Shown: in pieces, positions 29,716 through 64,000 of the stretch
Layout of the letters: each line of letters begins with the position of its first letter
Numbering within the stretch: the stretch's first letter is position 1
DNA from: Eledone cirrhosa
Taxonomy: Eukaryota
Length of the DNA: 64,000 bases
Assembly: GCA_964016885.1 (NCBI GenBank)
Contig: CAXHJY010000973.1
Coordinates: 607,914-671,913, forward strand
Reading direction: 5' to 3'
Made by a program: the position numbers and the translations under genes
The notes under the pieces: model-generated
Databases searched by the model: none
What the model was told of the DNA's origin: nothing
Seen by the model: the letters and a program-made list of their open reading frames with translations, nothing else

Positions 29716-29838
29716 TTATACTTTTCAGTTAGTTTAGCATGTGGGTGACTGATAGGTTACTAGGTAACCAGCTAGAAAGTTAATAGTTTATATTCTGTTA
29801 GCAGAACTGTATTGCAGTTGTAACTGTGATGTTTGGCT

Positions 29839-31496
29839 CTTAACAGATTGTTAGTGTCCACCTAACCCCTACAAGATGTTACGGTATGGTTAGTAATTGG
29901 TTCTTAACAGATTGTTAGGGTCCACCTAGCCCCTACAAGATGTTACGGTATGGTTAGTAATTGGTTCTTAACAGATTGTTAGGGTTCACCTAACCCCTAC
30001 AAGATGTTACGGTATGGTTAGTAATTGGTTCTTAACAGATTGTTAGTGTCCACCTAACCCCTACAAGATGTTACGGTATGGTTAGTAATTGGTTCTTATC
30101 AGATTGTTAGTGTCCACCTAACCCCTACAAGATGTTACGGTATGGTTAGTAATTGGTTCTTAACAGATTGTTAGTGTCCACCTAACCCCTACAAGATGTT
30201 ACGGTATGGTTAGTAATTGGTTCTTAACAGATTGTTAGGGTCCACCTAACCCCTACAAGATGTTACGGTATGGTTAGTAATTGGTTCTTAACAGATTGTT
30301 AGGGTCCACCTAACCCCTACAAGATGTTATGGTATGGCTAGTAATTGGTTCTTAACAGATTGTTAGGGTTCACCTAACCCCTACAAGATGTTACGGTATG
30401 GTTAGTAATTGGTTCTTATCAGATTGTTAGGGTCCACCTAGCCCCTACAAGATGCTACGGTGTGGTTAGTAATTGGTTCTTATCAGATTGTTAGGGTCCA
30501 CCTAACCCCTACAAGATGCTACGGTATGGTTAGTAATTGGTTCTTAACAGATTGTTAGGGTCCACCTAACCCCTACAAGACGCTGTGGTATGGTTAGTAA
30601 TTGGTTCTTAACAGATTGTTAGTGTCCACCTAACCCCTACAAGATGTTACGGTATGGTTAGTAATTGGTTCTTATCAGATTGTTAGGGTCCACCTAGCCC
30701 CTACAAGATGTTACGGTATGGTTAGTAATTGGTTCTTATCAGATTGTTAAGATCCACCTAACCCCTACAAGATGCTACGGTATGGTTAGTAATTGGTTCT
30801 TAACAGATTGTTAGGGTCCACCTAGCCCCTACAAGATGTTACGGTATGGTTAGTAATTGGTTCTTATCAGATTGTTAGGGTCCACCTAACCCCTACAAGA
30901 CGCTGTGGTATGGTTAGTAATTGGTTCTTATCAGATTGTTAGGGTCCACCTAGCCCCTACAAGATGTTACGGTACGGTGAGTAATTGGTTCTTATCAGAT
31001 TGTTAGGGTCCACCTAACCCCTACAAGATATTACGGTATGGTTAGTAATTGGTTCTTATCAGATTGTTAGGGTCCACCTAACCCCTACAAGATGTTACGG
31101 TATGGTTAGTAATTGGTTCTTAACAGATTGTTAGTGTCCACCTAACCCCTACAAGATGTTACGGTATGGTTAGTAATTGGTTCTTAACAGATTGTTAGGG
31201 TTCACCTAACCCCTACAAGATGTTACGGTATGGTTAGTAACTGGTTCTTATCAGATTGTTAGGGTCCACCTAACCCCTACAAGATGTTATGGTATGGTTA
31301 GTAATTGGTTAACAGATTGTTAGGGTCCACCTAACCCCAACAAGATGCTACGGTATGGTTAGTAATTGGTTCTTAACAGATTGTTAGGGTCCACCTAACC
31401 CCTACAAGATGCTGTGGTATGGTTAGTAATTGGTTCTCATCAGATTGTTAGGGTCCACCTAACCCCAACAAGATGTTACAGTATGGTTAGTAATTG
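29839..31496. repeat. 64-bp tandem repeat, ~26 copies
   Basis: Unit CTTAACAGATTGTTAGGGTCCACCTAACCCCTACAAGATGTTACGGTATGGTTAGTAATTGGTT. TAACAGATTG occurs at 29841, 29905 and onward. Confidence 0.98.
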
Positions 31497-33499: not shown

Positions 33500-34796
33500 C
33501 GAGGGGGGATCAAAAAGTTCGCAGAATTTTTCAGAAAATATTCTATTTTTCAAAAAATATGATTTACCATCAATTTATTTTTCTACATAATTGCTATTCA
33601 GGTCAATACACTTGACAAGGCGATGCTTCCAGCTTCGTAAGCCGTCTCTAAAGAAAGTTGAAGGCCTTGTTCGAAGCCATGTGTTGGCAGTGTTTTTAGC
33701 TTCTTCAACACCACTAAAACGGTTTCCTTTTAGCATTTCTTTGAGTTTTGGAAAGAGGAAAAAGTCTGATGGGGCTAAATCTGGACTATAAGGCGGGTGA
33801 GGAAGCACTTCCCATCGATATTCTCGGAGAACTTCTTTTGCAACCCACGCAGAATGCGCTGGTGCATTGTCATGATGAAACAAGATCCCACCATGAAGTT
33901 TCCCTTTTCGTTTCTTGACTAATGCCTCTTTCAGCTTCCTTAAAACATTTGCATAGTAAGCTCCTGTCACAGTTCTTTGACCTTCAAGATAATCTATTCG
34001 TATCACACCATCTGAATCCCAGAAAATGGTGGCCATCACTTTTTGATCCGACTTTTGGGATTTGAACTTGATTGGCCTCGATGATCCACGTGGAAGCCAC
34101 TGTTTTGACTGCTGTTTGGATTCAGCATCATACTGGTAGATCCAGGTTTCATCTCCGGTGATGATTCTGGTCAGGAAATGCTCTTCATCAACTTAAATTT
34201 TGTTTAATATTGCCAAAGACAGATCACTTAGAAAAATCAGCTGATCAGGGCGCAACGCTTTTGGGACCCATCGCGCTGAAAGCTTGCTTAGTCCCAAATT
34301 ATCGTGCAGAATTGAATTTGCCGAACCATATGAAATGTCTAGGGACTTAGCTAACTGATTAACTGTTATTCTTCGATCTTCTTCAATTAAAGTCTGAGCA
34401 GCCTCAACGTTTTGGTCATTTGTTGATGTTCCTAGTCTTCCACTGCGATGGTCGTCTTCAGGGTCGTCTCTCCCTTGTTTGAATCGCTGAATCCATTTGT
34501 AGACAGCAGTTTTCTTTGGAGCAGTAGTACTGTAAACTTTAACTAAAGCCTCCATAATCTGTGTCCCTTTCCATTTGAGTTTCACCAGAAACTTGATATT
34601 TGATCTTATCTCAAAATAACTATTTTCCATTGTTCCAAAAAGAGGTGTTTTAAAGAGTGTCACTACTGTACAATAGTCCGCACATAACTGACTGCAAGGT
34701 AAACACCCAGTGTCAATGTTCTGACATGTTTAATATTGTTTTAACCTATTTTTTTCTTACTACGATAAAATTCCGCGAACTTTTTGATCCCCCTCG
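33500..34796 (-). mobile_element. Full-length mariner transposon (1297 bp), irritans/Hsmar2-like terminal inverted repeats
   Basis: Left TIR CGAGGGGGGATCAAAAAGTTCGCAGAATTTT versus right TIR (reverse complement) CGAGGGGGATCAAAAAGTTCGCGGAATTTT. TA flanks at 33498-33499 and 34797-34798. Confidence 0.97.
33575..34630 (-). pseudogene. Mariner DD34D transposase, ~351 codons, single in-frame TAA at 34193-34195
   Basis: The two ORFs share one frame. Reading across the stop gives ARWVPKAL...I*VDEEHFLTRIITGDETW...HHDNAPAH...YSPDLAPSDF, with 34 residues between the 2nd and 3rd catalytic D. Confidence 0.95.
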
Positions 34797-37372: not shown

Positions 37373-37391
37373 AATTTATATATATATAAAT

Positions 37392-37422
<31 letters not shown>

Positions 37423-37425
37423 AAT

Positions 37426-38434
37426 ATGATATCACTGCTCTACACCAACACCAAAGCCCAAGTCATTACACCTGATGGGATGACAGAGTTCTTTGAGATA
37501 CTGGCTGGAGTGCTCCAGGGAGATACATTGGCTCCCTACCTTTTTATCATCGTAGTGGACTATTGTATGCGCCTTGCACTGGAGAAACACCAGGACTCTG
37601 GCTTTACTGTAGCACCGGCTCAGAGCAGGAGAGTTGGGGCGAAAAAGGTATTGGATGCTGAATTTGCCGACGACATAGTTTTGGTGACAAATACAGTGAA
37701 GGAGGCAGAGGATTTGATGCGGGAGGTTGAGACTGTGTCGATGAGTGTGGGGCTGAGAATGAATGAGACTAAAACAAAATATCTGGTAGAGAATGTTGAG
37801 AAGCCAGAGGGGATCACTAATGTTGGCGGGTAGCCGCTGGAATTGGTTGAGGACTTCCTGTATTTGGGAGCAAAGATTGGGAATACGGAAGATGATGTGG
37901 TTGAGAGGAAGAGCAAGGCCTGGGCGGCGTGTCACAGCTTGAGATCGGTGTGGCAGTCGGACCTTCGTAGAGACCTGAAAATCCGCCTCTTCATTGCTGT
38001 AGTGGAGTCTGTGCTGCTGTATGGGTCTGAGACTTGGACACTGACCAAGAGACTCACTCAGGTGGTGGATGGGTGCTACACGAGAATGCTGAGGATGGCT
38101 CTGAACATTAATCAGTATACACTGAGGATGAAAAACTCAGAGCTGTATGGGAGCATCCCAAAAGTCAGCTCAAAAGTGACACAGAGAAGACTGAGGTTGG
38201 CTGGACATGCTCACCGACATCCAGAGTTGACATTGCACTCAGTGCTCCTTTGGGAGCCCCTACATGGACACACTAGAAGAGGAAGACCAAGGTTAACATA
38301 TGTTGATGCCCTAAGGACAGACACTGGTCTGTTGGAGATGCAGGATATGGCAGCGATAATGAGGGACAGAGACCGCTGGAGAGAACTCGTCCATGGATCT
38401 CGGGAATTTTACCCGCCTTAGATAGATAGATAGA
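37426..38434 (+). mobile_element. 5'-truncated RTE-clade LINE (C-terminal half of reverse transcriptase) with one in-frame stop at 37831-37833 and a (TAGA)n tail
   Basis: Motifs GVLQGDTLAPYLF, EFADD, FLYLG, ESVLLYGSETW, RRLRLAGH, GRP and DRDRWR. ORFs 37426 and 37843 are in frame, and the terminal TAG runs into TAGATAGATAGA. Confidence 0.95.
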
Positions 38435-38446
38435 TATATATATATT

Positions 38447-38477
<31 letters not shown>

Positions 38478-38491
38478 AATATATATATATA

Positions 38492-38523
<32 letters not shown>

Positions 38524-39001
38524 AATATATATATATATAAATATATATATATATAAATATATATATATAAATATATATATATATAAATATATATATATAT
38601 AAATATATATATATATAAATATATATATATATAAATATATATATATATAAATATATATATATATAAATATATATATATATAAATATATATATATAAATAT
38701 ATATATATAAATATAAATATATATATATATAAATATATATATATATAAATATATATATATATAAATATATATATATATAAATATATATATATAAATATAA
38801 ATATATATAAATATAAATATATATATATATAAATATATATATATAAATATATATATATATAAATATATATATATATAAATATATATATATAAATATATAT
38901 ATATAAATATATAAATATATATATATATAAATATATATATATATAAATATATATATATAAATATATATATATAAATATATATATATAAATATATATATAT
39001 A

Positions 39002-39079
<78 letters not shown>

Positions 39080-39367
39080 TATATATATAAATATATATAT
39101 AAATATATATATATAAATATATATATATAAATATATATATATAAACAATTAAGTTAAAGATGTACATCCACATATGTATACTGAAATACTAGTATGCATA
39201 TGAATACACACACGTATACATATGTAGATGTACCGAGTTTTTCACTGGTCACTTTACTGTGAGTGTCCAGCTATTCTGTATGTAAACACACAGACAAACC
39301 GGTTTTTAGAGTCATACTGGTTTTTGAGGAAACACCTTTCCTCTATTCTCCAGAAAGCCAGGCAAGG

Positions 39368-39412
39368 AATATTGAACTAGTTTCGATGTTGTTACATCTC
39401 ATCAGCAATATT
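39368..39412 (-). ncRNA. Type I hammerhead ribozyme (copy 1)
   Basis: Minus strand reads AATATTG-CTGATGA-GATGT(AACA)ACATC-GAAAC-TA-GTT^CAATATT. Confidence 0.9.
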
Positions 39413-39833
39413 TACCTATCTTCCGGCCTCTCTAGAGAATCGTAAAAGCACATATCGTTATATGCTTTTTCTATGAAAATTAGTAGTGGGCAGACTAATT
39501 TGCATAGAGCGTGAGTACGTACCGGTTCAACGGAGACGATAAAAACAAATAACGAAACGAAATTAAATTTCGTTTCATTTGTAACTCACTTTTGTATGAC
39601 TGACGCTTAAACAATTAAGTTAAAGATGTACATCCACATATGTATACTGAAATACTAGTATGCATATGAATACACACACGTATACATATGTAGATGTACC
39701 GAGTTTTTCACTGGTCACTTTACTGTGAGTGTCCAGCTATTCTGTATGTAAACACACAGACAAACCGGTTTTTAGAGTCATACTGGTTTTTGAGGAAACA
39801 CCTTTCCTCTATTCTCCAGAAAGCCAGGCAAGG

Positions 39834-39878
39834 AATATTGAACTAGTTTCGATGTTGTTACATCTCATCAGCAATATT
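39834..39878 (-). ncRNA. Type I hammerhead ribozyme (copy 2)
   Basis: Same motif, +466 bp. Confidence 0.9.
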
Positions 39879-40299
39879 TACCTATCTTCCGGCCTCTCTA
39901 GAGAATCGTAAAAGCACATATCGTTATATGCTTTTTCTATGAAAATTAGTAGTGGGCAGACTAATTTGCATAGAGCGTGAGTACGTACCGGTTCAACGGA
40001 GACGATAAAAACAAATAACGAAACGAAATTAAATTTCGTTTCATTTGTAACTCACTTTTGTATGACTGACGCTTAAACAATTAAGTTAAAGATGTACATC
40101 CACATATGTATACTGAAATACTAGTATGCATATGAATACACACACGTATACATATGTAGATGTACCGAGTTTTTCACTGGTCACTTTACTGTGAGTGTCC
40201 AGCTATTCTGTATGTAAACACACAGACAAACCGGTTTTTAGAGTCATACTGGTTTTTGAGGAAACACCTTTCCTCTATTCTCCAGAAAGCCAGGCAAGG

Positions 40300-40344
40300 A
40301 ATATTGAACTAGTTTCGATGTTGTTACATCTCATCAGCAATATT
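40300..40344 (-). ncRNA. Type I hammerhead ribozyme (copy 3)
   Basis: Same motif, +932 bp. Confidence 0.9.
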
Positions 40345-40765
40345 TACCTATCTTCCGGCCTCTCTAGAGAATCGTAAAAGCACATATCGTTATATGCTTT
40401 TTCTATGAAAATTAGTAGTGGGCAGACTAATTTGCATAGAGCGTGAGTACGTACCGGTTCAACGGAGACGATAAAAACAAATAACGAAACGAAATTAAAT
40501 TTCGTTTCATTTGTAACTCACTTTTGTATGACTGACGCTTAAACAATTAAGTTAAAGATGTACATCCACATATGTATACTGAAATACTAGTATGCATATG
40601 AATACACACACGTATACATATGTAGATGTACCGAGTTTTTCACTGGTCACTTTACTGTGAGTGTCCAGCTATTCTGTATGTAAACACACAGACAAACCGG
40701 TTTTTAGAGTCATACTGGTTTTTGAGGAAACACCTTTCCTCTATTCTCCAGAAAGCCAGGCAAGG

Positions 40766-40810
40766 AATATTGAACTAGTTTCGATGTTGTTACATCTCAT
40801 CAGCAATATT
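40766..40810 (-). ncRNA. Type I hammerhead ribozyme (copy 4)
   Basis: Same motif, +1398 bp. Confidence 0.9.
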
Positions 40811-41231
40811 TACCTATCTTCCGGCCTCTCTAGAGAATCGTAAAAGCACATATCGTTATATGCTTTTTCTATGAAAATTAGTAGTGGGCAGACTAATTTG
40901 CATAGAGCGTGAGTACGTACCGGTTCAACGGAGACGATAAAAACAAATAACGAAACGAAATTAAATTTCGTTTCATTTGTAACTCACTTTTGTATGACTG
41001 ACGCTTAAACAATTAAGTTAAAGATGTACATCCACATATGTATACTGAAATACTAGTATGCATATGAATACACACACGTATACATATGTAGATGTACCGA
41101 GTTTTTCACTGGTCACTTTACTGTGAGTGTCCAGCTATTCTGTATGTAAACACACAGACAAACCGGTTTTTAGAGTCATACTGGTTTTTGAGGAAACACC
41201 TTTCCTCTATTCTCCAGAAAGCCAGGCAAGG

Positions 41232-41276
41232 AATATTGAACTAGTTTCGATGTTGTTACATCTCATCAGCAATATT
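41232..41276 (-). ncRNA. Type I hammerhead ribozyme (copy 5)
   Basis: Same motif, +1864 bp. Confidence 0.9.
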
Positions 41277-42096
41277 TACCTATCTTCCGGCCTCTCTAGA
41301 GAATCGTAAAAGCACATATCGTTATATGCTTTTTCTATGAAAATTAGTAGTGGGCAGACTAATTTGCATAGAGCGTGAGTACGTACCGGTTCAACGGAGA
41401 CGATAAAAACAAATAACGAAACGAAATTAAATTTCGTTTCATTTGTAACTCACTTTTGTATGACTGACGCTTAAACAATTAAGTTAAAGATGTACATCCA
41501 CATATGTATACTGAAATACTAGTATGCATATGAATACACACACGTATACATATGTAGATGTACCGAGTTTTTCACTGGTCACTTTACTGTGAGTGTCCAG
41601 CTATTCTGTATGTAAACACACAGACAAACCGGTTTTTAGAGTCATACTGGTTTTTGAGGAAACTAGTTCAATATTCCTTGCCTGGCTTTCTGGAGAATAG
41701 AGGAAAGGTGTTTCCTCAAAAACCAGTATGACTCTAAAAACCGGTTTGTCTGTGTGTTTACATACAGAATAGCTGGACACTCACAGTAAAGTGACCAGTG
41801 AAAAACTCGGTACATCTACATATGTATACGTGTGTGTATTCATATGCATACTAGTATTTCAGTATACATATGTGGATGTACATCTTTAACTTAATTGTTT
41901 AAGCGTCAGTCATACAAAAGTGAGTTACAAATGAAACGAAATTTAATTTCGTTTCGTTATTTGTTTTTATCGTCTCCGTTGAACCGGTACGTACTCACGC
42001 TCTATGCAAATTAGTCTGCCCACTACTAATTTTCATAGAAAAAGCATATAACGATATGTGCTTTTACGATTCTCTAGAGAGGCCGGAAGATAGGTA

Positions 42097-42141
42097 AATA
42101 TTGCTGATGAGATGTAACAACATCGAAACTAGTTCAATATT
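42097..42141 (+). ncRNA. Type I hammerhead ribozyme (inverted copy), predicted cleavage after 42134
   Basis: Stem I AATATTG(42097-42103)/CAATATT(42135-42141), CTGATGA 42104-42110, stem II GATGT/ACATC, GAAA 42125-42128, palindromic stem III ACTAGT, GUU cleavage triplet. Confidence 0.9.
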
Positions 42142-42654
42142 CCTTGCCTGGCTTTCTGGAGAATAGAGGAAAGGTGTTTCCTCAAAAACCAGTATGACTC
42201 TAAAAACCGGTTTGTCTGTGTGTTTACATACAGAATAGCTGGACACTCACAGTAAAGTGACCAGTGAAAAACTCGGTACATCTACATATGTATACGTGTG
42301 TGTATTCATATGCATACTAGTATTTCAGTATACATATGTGGATGTACATCTTTAACTTAATTGTTTAAGCGTCAGTCATACAAAAGTGAGTTACAAATGA
42401 AACGAAATTTAATTTCGTTTCGTTATTTGTTTTTATATATATATAAATATATATATATAAATATATATATATAAATATATAAATATATATATATAAATAT
42501 ATATATATAAATATATATATATAAATATATATATAAATATAAATATATATATAAATATATATATATAAATATAAATATATATATAAATATATATATAAAT
42601 ATATATATATATAAATATATATATAAATAAATATATATATAAATATAAATAAAT

Positions 42655-42705
<51 letters not shown>

Positions 42706-42722
42706 AATAAATATATATAAAT

Positions 42723-42753
<31 letters not shown>

Positions 42754-42760
42754 AATAAAT

Positions 42761-42791
<31 letters not shown>

Positions 42792-42800
42792 AATAAATAT

Positions 42801-42831
<31 letters not shown>

Positions 42832-42838
42832 AATAAAT

Positions 42839-42869
<31 letters not shown>

Positions 42870-42908
42870 AATATATATATATATAAATATATATATATAT
42901 AAATAAAT

Positions 42909-42939
<31 letters not shown>

Positions 42940-42946
42940 AATAAAT

Positions 42947-42977
<31 letters not shown>

Positions 42978-43007
42978 AATAAATATATATATATATAAAT
43001 ATATATG

Positions 43008-43041
<34 letters not shown>

Positions 43042-43042
43042 A

Positions 43043-43153
<111 letters not shown>

Positions 43154-43317
43154 AATATATATATATACAGTATTTTCCGTTGTGTTGTAATATAAATATT
43201 ACACACAGTAGATTATCAGCTCACGTAGAGTTTGCTCGACGGTTCCAGTTGTAGTTCCAAAGGTAATCCGGAGAAAAATAGAAAGATTTGAATGGATACA
43301 GTTTAGTTGAAAGGAAT

Positions 43318-43434
43318 TTATTGACACGTGTTTCTATAACAGTTACATAACCTAAAACAGCTATCTACAAACTTTTAGTTATGCAGACATTCAATATTTC
43401 AATGTTATTATTTACTGTCATTTCATCAGAATAA
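43318..43434 (-). ncRNA. Putative type I hammerhead ribozyme with extended, branched stem II
   Basis: Minus strand reads TTATT-CTGATGA-A-ATGACAGT...ACTGTTAT-A-GAAAC-ACGT-GTC^AATAA. Stem III is palindromic (ACACGTGT). Confidence 0.7.
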
Positions 43435-44020
43435 TATTACTGAGGACCTATTTAGTTTTTATAGAGAATATTAGGAGGGAGGGGTGAAGTTGTTAGAAGA
43501 ATAGTTGAAGGAGTGGTTTTTCGATAGCAGTGAGAATTCTTGGTGGCAGTGAGTAATTAGATTCCCATCTGTTGTTTTGACATTTTTTATGGAATATATT
43601 ATTGGTTATTTTTCTAAATCTATAGAAGGATTAGAGATAGTAAAGATATGCGTGGTTGGTTTTGTGTTTGCACTTAACATTCAGACTTAAATTTTTCTTT
43701 CAAGTGTACGTATTCTTTCACCCACGCATTCACACACAAATATATTTGCACACCTCTACAAAATACATATACTCGCAATTCACATATTCATACTTACATA
43801 TATATACACATGCATACACATATATATACACACATGTATTCATGTACATACATACGCGCTCATGTGTATACATTTTCATACTCAACTTATCTTTATATAT
43901 ACATACGTATAGACACACACATATATACATACATACTCTAGTCCATGTGTACACACATACGCATACATACACATCCACATACACATACATACATACACAT
44001 ATATATATATATATATACAT

Positions 44021-44073
<53 letters not shown>

Positions 44074-44364
44074 CCCACACACACACATATACACATACAC
44101 ACATATATATATATATATATAAGCACTTTAATACATGAATACACTTACATCTAACTATACACATCAAACATATATATATATTTACTTATTTATATACATT
44201 TTCACATATATATACATACTTATGGACGTTTTTAGACACATTCATTATCGCATATTTGTACCTATTTTCATCAGCATATCTTTTCATTATTAGTATGGTA
44301 ATTTAAGGTTATTAATATATGTTGAGAAGAGATTGTTTTTATATTTTTCTAACTAGATTAAGGT

Positions 44365-44910
44365 TTATATAGTTGGGGGATGTCCCTCTTTTATGTAATA
44401 TTCGGCTTGTAGTGGGAAAAAAAGGGTTTTAGTTCTGTGACGGCAGAATAATGTTCGTTCAATTCTGTTATTCAGCAGTTTCTTCTTGTGTGTGATTATG
44501 TAATAAATCTCAAGATTACACAATTTGCAGAAATTTTGGCTCCTGGAAAAGCTTTGGGTTTTAGCTAATTTTTCCCATTTTAGGGTAAACTTTTGATTGC
44601 TATCCCTGAGCGTCCAAGCTTTTTCTGCTAAAGTTGTTACATTTCTTTGGCTCTGGTGTTTTATTGAGTAAGAATGCCTATACAATCGAGATTTAAACGA
44701 TGTTGCCGTTGATCCCACGTAATACCACTCGTTGCCTCCGGATTTAATGGTACACTTATAAATAATATTTTTTTCCAGGCAGTTATTGCCGAGGGGGCAG
44801 TTGTCAGGATAGGTGCAGTTACAGTTGTGTACGTTGGGTTTTCTCTGGGGTAGTATTGCGGACGAACTTAGGTGTGGTTTATTTATGTTCTGTAGTGTAT
44901 TGTTGTGTAT
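44365..44910 (-). pseudogene. Penelope-like (Naiad-like) GIY-YIG endonuclease domain fragment
   Basis: The frame extends upstream of the listed ORF: IHNN...HNCNCTYPDNCPLGNNCLEKNIIYKCTIKSGGNEWYYVGSTATSFKSRLYRH...FCKLCNLEIYYII...LLNNRIE..FCRH. This gives a Cys-rich linker, NIIY/YVG as the GIY-YIG motif, and conserved R, H, E and N. Confidence 0.88.
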
Positions 44911-46101
44911 GTATTTATTTATTTATTTTATTTTATTTACTTAAGTAAATAAAATAAAATAAAATAAATAAATAAATACATACACAAGCACAATAACAAG
45001 CACATAAACACACACTAGTCACCCATCACACAGCAAACAAAACACTATACACACACGCAAACGCATGCGCAAAGAAGACAAAATAAAATAAACAAACAAG
45101 CAAATAAATAAATAAATATATAGACAGACTGAATAAAAATGGCGTAGACATACAATACAACAGGAGGAAAATATAACACCACTGACGATGTTGCAGATGT
45201 GCAACAAAAGATTTATGATAAACTATATATATGTGTTTGTGTCTATATTGTATCTGTATTATTTTTGACCGCCGGTCAGTCAATGGCAACATTGAGGACC
45301 GAGTATATTAGATTACCGATATAAAAGACACAGAAGCGAGAAGCGAAAACCAACCAAACAGTGAGTGTGTTCTGTTATTAATTCTGGCAATATTACACAA
45401 ATATGACCCTCCCCAAGTATGACAACATTTGTTTCGACACACGATTTCATATAAGAAACCTCGCAAAACTAATTCATCGCCGCTATATAAATATATATAT
45501 ACATATATATAAATATATATATAAATATATATAAATATATATATAAATATATATATACATATATATAAATATATATATACATATATATAAATATATATAT
45601 ACAGATATATATAAATATATATATAAATATATATATACATATATATATAAATATATATATACATATATATATAAATATATATATACATATATATATAAAT
45701 ATATATATACATATATATATAAATATATATATACATATATATATAAATATATATATACATATATATATAAATATATATATACATATATATATAAATATAT
45801 ATATACATATATATAAATATATATATACATATATATAAATATATATATACATATATATAAATATATATATACATATATATAAATATATACATATATATAT
45901 AAATATATAAATACATATATATATAAATATATAAATACATATATATATAAATATATAAATACATATATATATAAATACATAAATACATATATATATAAAT
46001 ATATAAATACATATATATATAAATACATATATATATAAATATATAAATACATATATATATAAATATATAAATACATATATATATAAATATATAAATACAT
46101 A

Positions 46102-51148: not shown

Positions 51149-51271
51149 AGTTTTAATATATATGAGATTCTACAGGACTAGAACTGTTTCATTCTTTAGA
51201 AATCAGGAATCCTGATGATTTCTAAAGAATGAAACAGTTCTACTCCTGTAGAATCTCATCTATATTAAAAC

Positions 51272-57307: not shown

Positions 57308-60300
57308 TATGTGTATATGTATGTGTGAGGAAGTTAGGTGTGTGTGTATATGTATGTGTGAGGAAGTTAGGTGAGTGTGTGTATATGTATGTGTGAGGAA
57401 GTTAGGTGTGTGTGTGTATATGTATGTGTGAGGAAGTTAGGTGTGTGTGTGTATATGTATGTGTGAGGAAGTTAGGTGGGTGTGTGTGTATATGTGTGAG
57501 GAAGTTAGGTGTGTGTGTGTATATGTATGTGTGAGGAAGTTAGGTGAGTGTGTGTATATGTATGTGTGAGGAAGTTAGGTGTGTGTGTATATGTATGTGT
57601 GAGGAAGTTAGGTGTGTGTGTATATGTATGTGTGAGGAAGTTAGGTGTGTGTGTGTATATGTATGTGTGAGGAAGTTAGGTGTGTGTCTGTGTATATGTA
57701 TGTGTGAGGAAGTTAGGTGTGTGTGTATATGTATGTGTGAGGAAGTTAGGTGTGTGTGTATATGTATGTGTGAGGAAGTTAGGTGTGTGTGTGTATATGT
57801 ATGTGTGAGGAAGTTAGGTGAGTGTGTGTATATGTATGTGTGAGGAAGTTAGGTGTGTGTGTGTATATGTATGTGTGAGGAAGTTAGGTGTGTGTGTATA
57901 TGTATGTGTGAGGAAGTTAGGTGTGTGTGTGTATATGTATGTGTGAGGAAGTTAGGTGAGTGTGTGTATATGTATGTGTGAGGAAGTTAGGTGAGTGTGT
58001 GTATATGTATGTGTGAGGAAGTTAGGTGAGTGTGTGTATATGTATGTGTGAGGAAGTTAGGTGAGTGTGTATATGTATGTGTGAGGAAGTTAGGTGTGTG
58101 TGTATATGTATGTGTGAGGAAGTTAGGTGTGTGTGTATATGTATGTGTGAGGAAGTTAGGTGTGTGTGTGTATATGTATGTGTGAGGAAGTTAGGTGTGT
58201 GTGTATATGTATGTGTGAGGAAGTTAGGTGTGTGTGTGTATATGTATGTGTGAGGAAGTTAGGTGAGTGTGTGTATATGTATGTGTGAGGAAGTTAGGTG
58301 AGTGTGTGTATATGTATGTGTGAGGAAGTTAGGTGAGTGTGTGTATATGTATGTGTGAGGAAGTTAGGTGAGTGTGTGTATATGTATGTGTGAGGAAGTT
58401 AGGTGAGTGTGTATATGTATGTGTGAGGAAGTTAGGTGTGTGTGTATATGTATGTGTGAGGAAGTTATGTGTGTGTGTGTATATGTATGTGTGAGGAAGT
58501 TAGGTGTGTGTGTGTATATGTATGTGTGAGGAAGTTAGGTGAGTGTGTGTATATGTATGTGTGAGGAAGTTAGGTGAGTGTGTGTATATGTATGTGTGAG
58601 GAAGTTAGGTGAGTGTGTGTATATGTATGTGTGAGGAAGTTAGGTGAGTGTGTATATGTATGTGTGAGGAAGTTAGGTGAGTGTGTGTATATGTATGTGT
58701 GAGGAAGTTAGGTGTGTGTGTGTATATGCATGTGTGAGGAAGTTATGTGTGTGTGTGTATATGTATGTGTGAGGAAGTTAGGTGAGTGTGTGTATATGTA
58801 TGTGTGAGGAAGTTAGGTGTGTGTGTGTATATGTATGTGTGAGGAAGTTAGGTGAGTGTGTATATGTATGTGTGAGGAAGTTAGGTGTGTGTGTATATGT
58901 ATGTGTGAGGAAGTTATGTGTGTGTCTGCGTATATGTATGTGTGAGGAAGTTAGGTGTGTGTGTGTATATGTATGTGTGAGGAAGTTAGGTGTGTGTGTA
59001 TATGTGTGTGTGAGGAAGTTATGTGTGTGTCTGTGTATATGTATGTGTGAGGAAGTTAGGTGTGTGTGTATATGTATGTGTAAGGAAGTTATGTGTGTGT
59101 GTGTATATGTATGTGTGAGGAAGTTATGTGTGTGTGTGTATATGTATGTGTGAGGAAGTTATGTGTGTGTGTGTATATGTATGTGTGAAGAAGTTAGGTG
59201 TGTGTGTATATGTATGTGTGAAGAAGTTATGTGTGTGTCTGTGTATATGTATGTGTGAGGAAGTTAGGTGTGTGTGTGTATATGTATGTGTGAGGAAGTT
59301 AGGTGTGTGTGTGTATATGTATGTGTGAGGAAGTTAGGTGTGTGTGTATATGTATGTGTGAGGAAGTTAGGTGTGTGTCTGTGTATATGTATGTGTGAGG
59401 AAGTTATGTGTGTGTGTGTATATGTATGTGTGAGGAAGTTATGTGTGTGTGTGTATATGTATGTGTGAGGAAGTTAGGTGTGTGTGTGTATATGTATGTG
59501 TGAGGAAGTTAGGTGTGTGTGTGTATATGTATGTGTGAGGAAGTTAGGTGTGTGTGTGTATATGTATGTGTGAAGAAGTTAGGTGTGTGTCTGCGTATAT
59601 GTATGTGTGAGGAAGTTAGGTGTGTGTGTGTATATGTATGTGTGAGGAAGTTAGGTGTGTGTGTATATGTATGTGTGAGGAAGTTAGATGTGTGTGTATA
59701 TGTATGTGTGAGGAAGTTAGGTGTGTGTGTATATGTATGTGTGAGGAAGTTATGTGTGTGTGTATATGTATGTGTGAGGAAGTTATGTGTGTGTGTATAT
59801 GTATGTGTGAGTAAGTTAGGTGTGTGTGTATATGTATGTGTGAGGAAGTTAGGTGAGTGTGTATATGTATGTGTGAGGAAGTTAGGTGTGTGTGTATATG
59901 TATGTGTGAGGAAGTTATGTGTGTGTGTGTATATGTATGTGTGAGGAAGTTAGATGTGTGTCTGTGTATATGTATGTGTGAGGAAGTTAGGTGTGTGTGT
60001 TTATATGTATGTGTGAGGAAGTTAGGTGTGTGTGTATATGTATGTGTGAGGAAGTTAGGTGTGTGTGTGTATATGTATGTGTGAGGAAGTTAGGTGTGTG
60101 TGTGTATATGTATGTGTGAGGAAGTTAGGTGTGTGTGTATATGTATGTGTGAGGAAGTTATGTGTGTGTGTGTATATGTATGTGTGAGGAAGTTATGTGT
60201 GTGTCTGTGTATATGTATGTGTGAGGAAGTTAGGTGTGTGTGTATATGTATGTGTAAGGAAGTTATGTGTGTGTGTGTATATGTATGTGTGAGGAAGTTA

Positions 60301-63300
60301 TGTGTGTGTGTGTATATGTATGTGTGAAGAAGTTAGGTGTGTGTGTATATGTATGTGTGAAGAAGTTAGGTGTGTGTCTGTGTATATGTATGTGTGAGGA
60401 AGTTAGGTGTGTGTGTGTATATGTATGTGTGAGGAAGTTAGGTGTGTGTGTGTATATGTATGTGTGAGGAAGTTAGGTGTGTGTGTATATGTATGTGTGA
60501 GGAAGTTAGGTGTGTGTCTGTGTATATGTATGTGTGAGGAAGTTATGTGTGTGTGTGTATATGTATGTGTGAGGAAGTTATGTGTGTGTGTATATGTATG
60601 TGTGAGGAAGTTAGGTGTGTGTGTATATGTATGTGTGAGGAAGTTAGGTGTGTGTGTGTATATGTATGTGTGAGGAAGTTAGGTGTGTGTGTGTATATGT
60701 ATGTGTGAGGAAGTTAGGTGTGTGTGTATATGTATGTGTGAGGAAGTTAGGTGTGTGTCTGTGTATATGTATGTGTGAGGAAGTTATGTGTGTGTGTGTA
60801 TATGTATGTGTGAGGAAGTTATGTGTGTGTGTGTATATGTATGTGTGAGGAAGTTAGGTGTGTGTGTGTATATGTATGTGTGAGGAAGTTAGGTGTGCGT
60901 GTATATGTATGTGTGAGGAAGTTAGGTGTGTGTCTGTGTATATGTATGTGTGAGGAAGTTATGTGTGTGTGTGTATATGTATGTGTGAGGAAGTTATGTG
61001 TGTGTGTGTATATGTATGTGTGAGGAAGTTAGGTGTGTGTGTGTATATGTATGTGTGAGGAAGTTAGGTGTGTGTGTGTATATGTATGTGTGAGGAAGTT
61101 AGGTGTGTGTGTGTATATGTATGTGTGAAGAAGTTAGGTGTGTGTCTGCGTATATGTATGTGTGAGGAAGTTAGGTGTGTGTGTGTATATGTATGTGTGA
61201 GGAAGTTAGGTGTGTGTGTATATGTATGTGTGAGGAAGTTAGATGTGTGTGTATATGTATGTGTGAGGAAGTTAGGTGTGTGTGTATATGTATGTGTGAG
61301 GAAGTTATGTGTGTGTGTATATGTATGTGTGAGGAAGTTATGTGTGTGTGTATATGTATGTGTGAGTAAGTTAGGTGTGTGTGTATATGTATGTGTGAGG
61401 AAGTTAGGTGAGTGTGTATATGTATGTGTGAGGAAGTTAGGTGTGTGTGTATATGTATGTGTGAGGAAGTTATGTGTGTGTGTGTATATGTATGTGTGAG
61501 GAAGTTAGATGTGTGTCTGTGTATATGTATGTGTGAGGAAGTTAGGTGTGTGTGTTTATGTATGTGTGAGGAAGTTAGGTGTGTGTGTGTATATGTATGT
61601 GTGAGGAAGTTAGGTGTGTGTGTATATGTATGTGTGAGGAAGTTAGGTGTGTGTGTGTATATGTATGTGTGAGGAAGTTAGGTGTGTGTGTATATGTATG
61701 TGTGAGGAAGTTAGGTGTGTGTGTGTATATGTATGTGTGAGGAAGTTAGGTGTGTGTGTATATGTATGTGTGAGGAAGTTAGGTGTGTGTGTGTATATGT
61801 ATGTGTGAGGAAGTTAGGTGTGTGTGTTTATGTATGTGTGAGGAAGTTAGGTGTGTGTGTGTATATGTATGTGTGAGGAAGTTAGGTGTGTGTGTATATG
61901 TATGTGTGAGGAAGTTAGGTGTGTGTGTGTATATGTATGTGTGAGGAAGTTAGGTGTGTGTGTGTATATGTATGTGTGAGGAAGTTAGGTGTGTGTGTAT
62001 ATGTATGTGTGAGGAAGTTAGGTGTGTGTGTGTATATGCATGTGTGAGGAAGTTATGTGTGTGAGTATATGTATGTGTGAGGAAGTTAGGTATGTGTGTG
62101 TATATGTATGTGTGAGGAAGTTAGGTGTGTGTGTGTATATGTATGTGTGAGGAAGTTAGGTGTGTGTGTATATGTATATGTGAGGAAGTTAGGTGGGTGT
62201 GTGTATATGTATGTGTGAGGAAGTTATGTGTGTGTGTGTATATGTATGTGTGAGGAAGTTAGGTGTGTGTGTATATGTATGTGTGAGGAAGTTAGATGTG
62301 TGTGTATATGCATGTGTGAGGAAGTTAGGTGTGTGTGTATATGTATGTGTGAGGAAGTTAGATGTGTGTGTATATGCATGTGTGAGGAAGTTATGTGTGT
62401 GTGTGTATATGTATGTGTGAGGAAGTTAGGTGTGTGTGTGTATATGTATGTGTGAGGAAGTTAGGTGTGTGTGTATATGTATGTGAGAAAGTTAGATGTG
62501 TGTGTATATGTATGTGTGAGGAAGTTAGGTGTGTGTGTGTATATGTATGTGTGAGGAAGTTAGGTGTGTGTGTATATGTATGTGTGAGGAAGTTAGGTGT
62601 GTGTGTGTATATGTATGTGTGAGGAAGTTAGGTGTGTGTCTGTGTATATGTATGTGTGAGGAAGTTAGGTGTGTGTGTTTATGTATGTGTGAGGAAGTTA
62701 GGTGTGTGTGTGTATATGTATGTGTGAGGAAGTTAGGTGTGTGTGTATATGTATGTGTGAGGAAGTTAGGTGTGTGTGTGTATATGTATGTGTGAGGAAG
62801 TTAGGTGTGTGTCTGTGTATATGTATGTGTGAGGAAGTTATGTGTGTGTGTGTATATGTATGTGTGAGGAAGTTAGGTGGGTGTGTATTTGTATGTGTGA
62901 GGAAGTTAGGTGTGTGTGTGTGTATATGTATGTGTGAGGAAGTTAGGTGTGTGTGTATATGTATGTGTGAGGAAGTTATGTGTGTGTGTGTATATGTATG
63001 TGTGAGAAAGTTATGTGTGTGTGTGTATATGTATGTGTGAGGAAGTTATGTGTGTGTGTGTATATGTATGTGTGAGGAAGTTAGGTGTGTGTGTATATGT
63101 ATGTGTGAGGAAGTTAGGTGTGTGTGTGTATATGTATGTGTGAGGAAGTTAGGTGTGTGTGTATATGTATGTGTGAGGAAGTTAGGTGTGTGTGTGTATA
63201 TGTATGTGTGAGGAAGTTAGGTGTGTGTGTGTATATGTATGTGTGAGGAAGTTAGGTGTGTGTGTATATGTATGTGTGAGGAAGTTAGGTGTGTGTGTGT

Positions 63301-64000
63301 GTATATGTATGTGTGAGGAAGTTAGGTGTGTGTGTATATGTATGTGTGAGGAAGTTAGGTGTGTGTGTGTATATGTATGTGTGAGGAAGTTAGGTGTGTG
63401 TGTATATGTATGTGTGAGGAAGTTAGGTGTGTGTGTGTATATGTATGTGTGAGGAAGTTAGGTGTGTGTGTGTATATGTATGTGTGAGGAAGTTAGGTGT
63501 GTGTGTATATGTATGTGTGAGGAAGTTAGGTGAGTGTGTATATGTATGTGTGAGGAAGTTAGGTGTGTGTGTATATGTATGTGTGAGGAAGTTATGTGTG
63601 TGTGTGTATATGTATGTGTGAGGAAGTTAGATGTGTGTCTGTGTATATGTATGTGTGAGGAAGTTAGGTGTGTGTGTTTATGTATGTGTGAGGAAGTTAG
63701 GTGTGTGTGTGTATATGTATGTGTGAGGAAGTTAGGTGTGTGTGTATATGTATGTGTGAGGAAGTTAGGTGTGTGTGTGTATATGTATGTGTGAGGAAGT
63801 TAGGTGTGTGTCTGTGTATATGTATGTGTGAGGAAGTTATGTGTGTGTGTGTATATGTATGTGTGAGGAAGTTAGGTGTGTGTGTGTATATGTATGTGTG
63901 AGGAAGTTAGGTGAGTGTGTATATGTATGTGTGAGGAAGTTAGGTGTGTGTGTATATGTATGTGTGAGGAAGTTATGTGTGTGTGTGTATATGTATGTGT
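57308..64000. repeat. 33-37-bp GT-rich satellite GTATATGTATGTGTGAGGAAGTTAGGT(GT)n, ~190 copies; runs off the right edge
   Basis: Direct periodicity. Length variation is confined to the (GT)n segment. Confidence 0.99.

Follow-up and report, generated by a model that had tools for sequence, protein, structure and literature searches.

A 466-bp hammerhead repeat in Eledone cirrhosa forms two-armed insertions with paired, Penelope-type ends

Here we present a 466-bp repeat from Eledone cirrhosa that, as far as its sequence tells, is a real, large and recently active retrozyme family. Its insertions are mostly composed of two arms in opposite orientation, and the outer ends of these arms fall at two different sites of the unit. 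The array studied in detail lies in the window (the whole stretch of 64,000 nucleotides that was analysed) and was compared with insertions found by searching 3.0 Gb of genome sequence. The family is probably a non-LTR retrozyme in the sense of a non-autonomous Penelope-like element (PLE), a circular RNA being copied by priming at two sites. In the accessible portions of the sources, the spread of animal retrozymes as PLE-copied circles has been proposed so far from co-occurrence and pLTR similarity (PMC7229834; bioRxiv 10.64898/2026.07.22.740005).

Overall structure of the array

The array (39142-42436) comprises two arms joined 5′-to-5′, with 5.41 units on the minus strand and 1.67 on the plus strand (Table 1). 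The sequence-only reading had described a plain tandem of 466-bp monomers. This is correct within each arm, where the units are 100% identical with a period of 466, as had been judged by eye, but the arms are inverted with respect to each other and meet at 41659-41663. Both flanks are (TA)n-like tracts, and the longest stop-free frame in the concatemer is 57-60 codons; the setting in (TA)n and the lack of a credible ORF had both been recognized in that reading. The unit has a GC content of about 36%. Its plus-strand fold (Table 1) was scored against 100 shuffles, and the opposite strand folds at -130.3 kcal/mol. An ORF for RT and GIY-YIG is absent from the unit, which is therefore not an autonomous PLE, and no LTR structure is evident in the arm maps of the examined insertions. 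An octamer-like motif at unit position 336 was considered as a promoter, a role for which newt satellite 2 provides a precedent. It was rejected as unsupported: it lies in a conserved hairpin, it varies in two loci (L093 and L109), and no supporting paper was found.

Table 1 Features of the two-armed array in the window
Feature	Position	Strand	Description	Evidence
Left (TA)n-like target tract	38426-39141	.	target duplication unreadable in such sequence	
Left arm	39142-41663	-	5.41 units of 466 bp, all identical, running from unit position 42 (5′ end, 41663) to site A at unit position 233 (3′ end, next to (TA)n at 39142)	
Type I hammerhead	39352-39423	-		Rfam HH9 match
Type I hammerhead	39818-39889	-		Rfam HH9 match
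Type I hammerhead	40284-40355	-		Rfam HH9 match
Type I hammerhead	40750-40821	-		Rfam HH9 match
Type I hammerhead	41216-41287	-		Rfam HH9 match
Central 5′-to-5′ inversion junction	41659-41663	.	5-bp microhomology common to both arms	
Right arm	41659-42436	+	1.67 units, running from unit position 457 (5′ end) to site B at unit position 302 (3′ end, next to (TA)n)	
Predicted 466-nt monomer/circle, cleavage site to cleavage site	41669-42134	+	fold -159.5 kcal/mol, z -11.2	
'Tail' between sites A and B	41896-41970	+	putative RT-binding and initiation element; both sites kept in sister family	
Site A	41896-41901	+	unit 228-233; loop and 3′ side of small hairpin	
Site B	41969-41970	+	unit 301-302; U-rich stretch 3′ of long hairpin	
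Type I hammerhead	42086-42157	+	predicted cleavage after 42134 (GUU)	Rfam HH9 match, stem conservation
Right (TA)n-like target tract	42437-43167	.		

The remainder of the window contains large satellites of 30, 64 and 35 bp (1-29243, 29833-31496 and 57310-64000, respectively), together with what we take, from the translations, to be a broken LINE-like RT (37390-38418) and a transposase-like pair of frames (33578-34729). Isolated hammerhead-core-like motifs of other repeats are present at 51212 (plus strand), 56502 (minus) and 43429 (minus), the last of these in the pLTR of a PLE copy described below.

The hammerhead and its conservation

The six complete hammerheads announced by the sequence-only reading, one per 466-bp unit, are all present: the minus strand carries five and the plus strand the sixth. 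Each matches Rfam Hammerhead_HH9 (RF02275, clan CL00010) over model positions 1-77 with 33.1 bits (E 1.3e-5), a score that lies below the gathering score of 52. The architecture is that of the Rfam family over all 77 model positions, including the internal loop of stem I and a 6-nt loop II; what differs is the score and helix III, which is down to 2 bp. Also borne out were a 7-bp stem I with its core, a 5-bp stem II closed by G-C, a short palindromic stem III (2 bp plus a 2-nt palindromic loop) and a GUU triplet that places the predicted cleavage site after 42134. An extension of stem I past a CCU bulge had been proposed as well. It forms in the fold of the window copy but is not kept in a sister family described below, in which an invariant GG pairs with CC in its place. 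GUU, a weaker cleavage triplet of hammerheads, is the triplet of the 466-bp family, and GUC and GUA occur in related subfamilies. Matches of the array to miRNA families in Rfam were discarded, being far below threshold and reflecting TA/CA hairpins.

With its internal loop in helix I, a helix II of 4-5 bp and a helix III of 2 bp, the motif has the build of the ordinary metazoan type I form. By the definitions in the accessible text of PMC4209133, the window hammerhead is thus assigned, from its sequence, to this form with a short helix III and not to the helix-III-less minimal form of PLEs. The same text reports that the metazoan type I form with a short helix III cleaves well only as a dimer, and here the helix III duplex (-4.8 kcal/mol) is obtained only as a dimer.

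Conservation was followed in 20 related motifs from the subfamilies and the sister family. Across these, 96.3% of stem cells are paired, compared with at most 51% in slid controls, and 7 of the 16 stem pairs have changed on both sides, a count that derives from about two clades and few independent events. One double change in stem II is also found inside the 466-bp family (locus L060) and in three of four sequencing runs. The core is kept. Core conservation with stem covariation in homologous copies, which the sequence-only reading had set as a test, is hence what we observe.

Insertion ends pair two different sites

We examined 55 insertions: the window array, 29 loci from the best genome matches (the best 40 of 192 candidates scored, a choice biased to young copies) and 25 taken in order of position among the matches listed for the first 31 Mb of contig C1, which are 89-99% identical. 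End classes were tallied by hand. In 35 insertions both arms are long, the outer end of one lying at site A (unit positions 228-233) and that of the other at site B (301-303), and five have one long arm together with an arm of 10-20 nt at the other site, giving 40 of 55 with the A+B arrangement. AA or BB insertions number 0 of 55. The other loci are two-armed with one end off-site (five), one-armed (nine) or extend past the edge of the sequence examined (one). Either arm may be the longer: among the 35 loci with two long arms it is the A arm in 14 and the B arm in 21, and neither arm bounds the other.

A 13-bp target duplication, the ends of which overlap the element by a few bases, is present in all three insertions located outside microsatellites and minisatellites (L032, L044 and L047). 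The target end can pair with the RNA over 1-5 nt at sites A and B, and the insertions examined lie preferentially in AT-rich or (TA)n targets. The sister family uses homologous A and B sites and follows the A+B rule in three clean two-armed loci. An A+B-type rule also applies to an autonomous PLE family of the same genome, in three of three fully visible two-armed copies (L062, L066 and L068).

An inverted, 5′-truncated copy with a one-sided tail of 30-40 bp is a hallmark of PLEs according to the accessible parts of PMC8557442 and PMC3846280. Judged by layout, the retrozyme ends are this Penelope 'inverted copy + tail' signature. To this the strict A+B pairing adds that the two ends of a finished insertion draw on different sites, as indicated by the 40 A+B insertions and the absence of AA and BB among the 55. 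Mobilization by Penelope-like machinery, which had been suggested for the window array, is supported by these PLE-type ends; the partner enzyme is a candidate only.

Haplotypes and junctions as a record of the template

The two arms of an insertion mostly agree in haplotype. Of 40 two-armed loci, 23 have the partner as the single closest arm, and in most of the remainder it ties for this place or comes near it; the exceptions are five loci (L048, L049, L054, L077 and L082), where the partner is no closer than many other arms. We found 31 majority haplotypes among 39 loci. At sites with at least four copies, non-global alleles are carried by all copies of a locus in 189 cases (a figure that includes subfamily-wide differences), by a single copy in 81, by two to under half in 27 and by half or more but not all in 7. 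The one-armed L053, which shares two 'private' changes of L056/57, was left out of this count. In L036, a single private change is present in 16 of 16 copies of both arms, and there is no other variation. In 6 of 40 loci (L042, L045, L056/57, L080, L086 and L091), a variant is confined to a subset of the copies but occurs in each of the two arms. Both L042 and L045 have one variant unit per arm, which in L045 is the first-copied unit of both arms; the pattern of L042 would fit a three-unit template.

The central 5′ ends are spread uniformly round the unit, with 4 of 78 within 15 nt of the cleavage site compared with 5.0 expected (Rayleigh p about 0.3; mapping of 5′ ends is imprecise in older loci). 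Unit-to-unit junctions are seamless, with no indels at the cleavage junction. Microhomology of 1-6 nt is present at 15 of 24 young central junctions; the count was confined to 24 young loci because exact extension stops at point changes in older ones, and L089 has no anchor. Short templated or inverted inserts are found at the junctions of L038, L046, L054 and L055. Long older arrays display block patterns of period 4 or 5 (block duplications in L043, L051, L053 and L056/57), indicating that part of their length was acquired after insertion.

Haplotypes shared across arms and 5′ ends that are free of the cleavage site favour rolling-circle copying, with a circular monomer as template. Several turns of copying round such a circle, begun from both ends, would explain the shared haplotypes, the uniform 5′ ends, the seamless junctions and the finding that either arm can be the longer. 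Jumping of the RT between linear cleaved monomers is disfavoured, as there are no indels at cleavage junctions and no 5′ ends gathered there.

One locus is chimeric. At L051:1900-2300, a site-B arm of the sister family is joined to a 13-unit site-A arm of the 466-bp family, with the switch just past the site A of the sister. This single case hints at one enzyme serving both families and at arms that can derive from two RNAs; it could also be a fusion of two insertions.

Family size, age and relatives

A family-specific pattern of 34 letters has 9,250 exact matches in the genome, and its reversed control has none. A pattern that excludes the 466-bp family detects 30,815 copies of the sister family (control, 10), which by pattern count is about three times as abundant. 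Its units measure 419-492 bp and are 62-64% identical to the 466-bp family, with a GUA or GUU triplet and a U-U or other mismatch at the base of stem II (examples are L036:1332-1407, L041:8886-8961 and L096-L115). The 466-bp family is young, dispersed and non-coding, as had been surmised, since one identical unit haplotype recurs at five loci on five contigs. A search for dispersed arrays with permuted ends, suggested in the sequence-only reading, did find dispersed arrays, but their 3′ ends are fixed at the two sites and only the 5′ ends are free. We discounted a plain satellite or an assembly artefact because dozens of loci have these ends in common and the passage from site B into (TA)n is also seen in four contigs of sequencing run X1, which is possibly related to the source.

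Runs X4, X5 and X6, which are labelled as three other organisms, contain fragments that differ little from the unit; the differences include a compensatory change in stem II and a GUC triplet. A third hammerhead repeat, with a period of 310, forms two back-to-back arms too (L055:5080-6400; three motifs on the minus strand and two on the plus strand). At L071:2448-7210, a LINE-like element with a frame of 1040 codons is inserted into one retrozyme arm.

Candidate partner elements

A 5′-truncated copy of an autonomous PLE lies next to the window array (43160-44903, minus strand; GIY-YIG frame 44368-44922) and ends in the same (TA)n tract. Elsewhere in the genome, members of its family carry complete frames of 785-794 aa, and the family has two end sites of its own, spaced by about 115 nt. 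We inspected this family and two others, those of L049 and L101, all having open frames and (TA)n ends; a Pfam search of the three proteins gave a sub-threshold RVT_1 match for one of them. No pLTR homology to the 466-bp unit was detected in these three families with open frames of 713-794 aa, and the genome holds more families. Among the matches listed at 20 sister-family loci there is no attached PLE frame. The junction of L060 with a piece of PLE was considered as a clue to the partner and dismissed, as it is best read as a deletion between neighbours.

Relation to known elements

The 466-bp family works like, and by its testable features is, a metazoan non-LTR retrozyme, its cleavage and expression being predicted. 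There is a type I hammerhead in each tandem unit; the unit is short, non-coding, low in GC and self-paired; and the multimeric insertions are dispersed, with a target duplication longer than 4 bp (13 bp at three of three readable sites). The retrozymes of coral, mussel and axolotl and newt satellite 2, as described in the accessible text of Cervera and de la Pena 2020 (PMC7229834), have the same hammerhead per unit, tandem non-coding units, low GC, the same self-paired fold, a target duplication of more than 4 bp and PLEs in the genome; PMC7761336, likewise accessible in part, is a further source on this group. At 466 bp, the unit is slightly above the range of 150-450 bp given in PMC7229834 and within the 51-972 bp given in bioRxiv 10.64898/2026.07.22.740005. 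A two-armed inverted layout and two fixed 3′ sites go unmentioned in the Discussion of PMC7229834, in so far as accessible. Cleavage and circles are demonstrated in that paper, whereas for the 466-bp family both are predicted; tandem cDNA synthesis by a PLE on a circRNA template is proposed there for animal retrozymes.

Several features are shared with PLEs: 5′-truncated arms inverted 5′-to-5′, a one-sided tail, two internal initiation sites and AT-rich or (TA)n targets. The target duplication of 13 bp is similar in size to rotifer PLE examples (8-10 bp). The retrozyme differs in having no ORF, a tail of about 70 nt as against 30-40, and arms that are both multimers of one short unit. In the parts of PMC11167929 available, a PLE protein was purified, modelled as a dimer and shown to cleave AT-rich DNA on both strands and to extend each of them, initiating at two sites inside the RNA that mark the limits of the tail; no strand preference was seen for either site. 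This Anolis enzyme needs no pairing in vitro, whereas 1-5 nt of target-RNA pairing are visible in the retrozyme. An in vitro system to explain the inverted ends and tail of PLEs was called for in PMC8557442 (accessible text).

Vertebrate retrozymes viewed as non-autonomous PLE derivatives (bioRxiv 10.64898/2026.07.22.740005) belong to the same class and have the same proposed partner. As far as the accessible part of that work goes, it rests on co-occurrence and pLTR homology and leaves insertion ends unanalysed; for the 466-bp family the ends are the evidence, and the three PLE families inspected yielded no pLTR homologue. Non-LTR retrozymes and their proposed link to PLEs are already in print. 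Our search of mainly open-access literature gave no paper describing the 466-bp family, nor any reporting retrozyme arrays of two arms whose ends are fixed and paired; the repeat may already have an entry somewhere as a satellite or an unclassified repeat.

Proposed mechanism and alternatives

Under the PLE mechanism that we think probable, arrays would be transcribed and their hammerheads would cut out 466-nt monomers, probably as double hammerheads because helix III has only 2 bp. A host ligase may then circularize the monomers, by analogy with other retrozymes. A putative PLE RT/GIY-YIG complex would bind the tail element of about 70 nt, and both strands of an AT-rich target would be nicked 13 bp apart. 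The two DNA ends would prime at different sites, one at A and one at B, through 1-5 nt of pairing; of this step the ends, the duplication and the pairing are visible in the sequence. Each RT would circle the same RNA for a variable number of turns, and the two cDNAs would anneal via short microhomology and be filled in, generating back-to-back arrays, some of which, when long, would lengthen later by block duplication. A more specific version, offered tentatively and to our mind at slightly under an even chance, is double rolling-circle copying by a PLE RT dimer: two enzymes placed 70 nt apart on one 466-nt circle, a 13-bp staggered break, mutual displacement of the cDNAs and joining by microhomology.

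The main rival to the circle is an uncleaved linear multimer. PLE two-site priming would be the same, the template would be a long linear transcript of a homogeneous array, and the hammerhead would matter little for insertion. The uniform 5′ ends and seamless junctions fit such a template equally well, and it would sit comfortably with the weakness of helix III and with the six loci in which sub-array variants are common to both arms, to which later gene conversion is also suited. In addition, hammerhead cleavage is dispensable for PLE insertion in vitro (accessible text of PMC11167929). We nevertheless regard a linear template as unlikely: the many haplotypes fixed in all copies of both arms would need repeated passage through a single unit, older arrays gather unfixed variants and do not homogenize, and the maintenance of core and stems with compensatory changes over about 37% divergence would imply selection on cleavage. 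Far less probable is insertion of about one unit per arm followed by growth through unequal exchange and concerted evolution, a satellite birth from a PLE terminus of the kind proposed in the accessible text of bioRxiv 10.64898/2026.07.22.740005. The block-duplication patterns of the four older loci named above point in this direction; however, the youngest loci without internal differences already have 4-9 units per arm (the window, L031 and L036), an arm typically has 1.5-3 units and a free 5′ end, and both arms would have to expand and homogenize independently.

We give marginally less credence still to a scheme in which one arm is target-primed and the inverted arm arises by fold-back, self-priming or copying of the cDNA made first. 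For PLE inversions, PMC3846280 (accessible text) put forward self-priming on an antisense template, and such a process would account for the haplotype common to both arms and for the short inserts at four junctions. It is opposed by outer ends at fixed, different sites that both overlap the target duplication, by two 5′ positions unrelated to each other, by either arm being able to exceed the other by many units and, unless two insertions have fused in this one case, by L051, where the two arms come from different families. Copying of a circle by PLE two-site priming, our preferred reading, has difficulties of its own. The three PLE families with intact ORFs offer no pLTR homologue; the variants seen in both arms of 6 of 40 loci are compatible with a template of several units, or with gene conversion at a later time; in five loci the partner arm is matched in closeness by many others; five two-armed loci have an off-site end and nine loci are one-armed; and part of the length of long older arrays is post-insertional. 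From the accessible portions of the literature, hammerhead mutants of the Anolis PLE are unimpaired in insertion in vitro and priming proceeds without homology (PMC11167929), and one of nine Xenopus dimers was cleaved in vitro (bioRxiv 10.64898/2026.07.22.740005).

Significance

The anatomy of these insertions ties retrozymes directly to PLE two-site priming, from DNA evidence. As a substrate, the 466-bp family is compact and was active recently. Its two start sites are mapped, the stagger is defined as 13 bp, both sites persist in a sister family of 63% identity, and several PLE families of this genome have open frames and are candidate partners. Twin priming and rolling-circle copying can therefore be put to a direct test, and for RNA-templated gene writing a short RNA able to direct insertion at two ends is of interest. 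Should the double rolling-circle version be true, twin priming of this kind would also account for the inverted pLTR and tail that have long gone unexplained in every endonuclease-bearing PLE, and the roughly 40,000 hammerhead copies of the genome would descend from circles replicated in this way.
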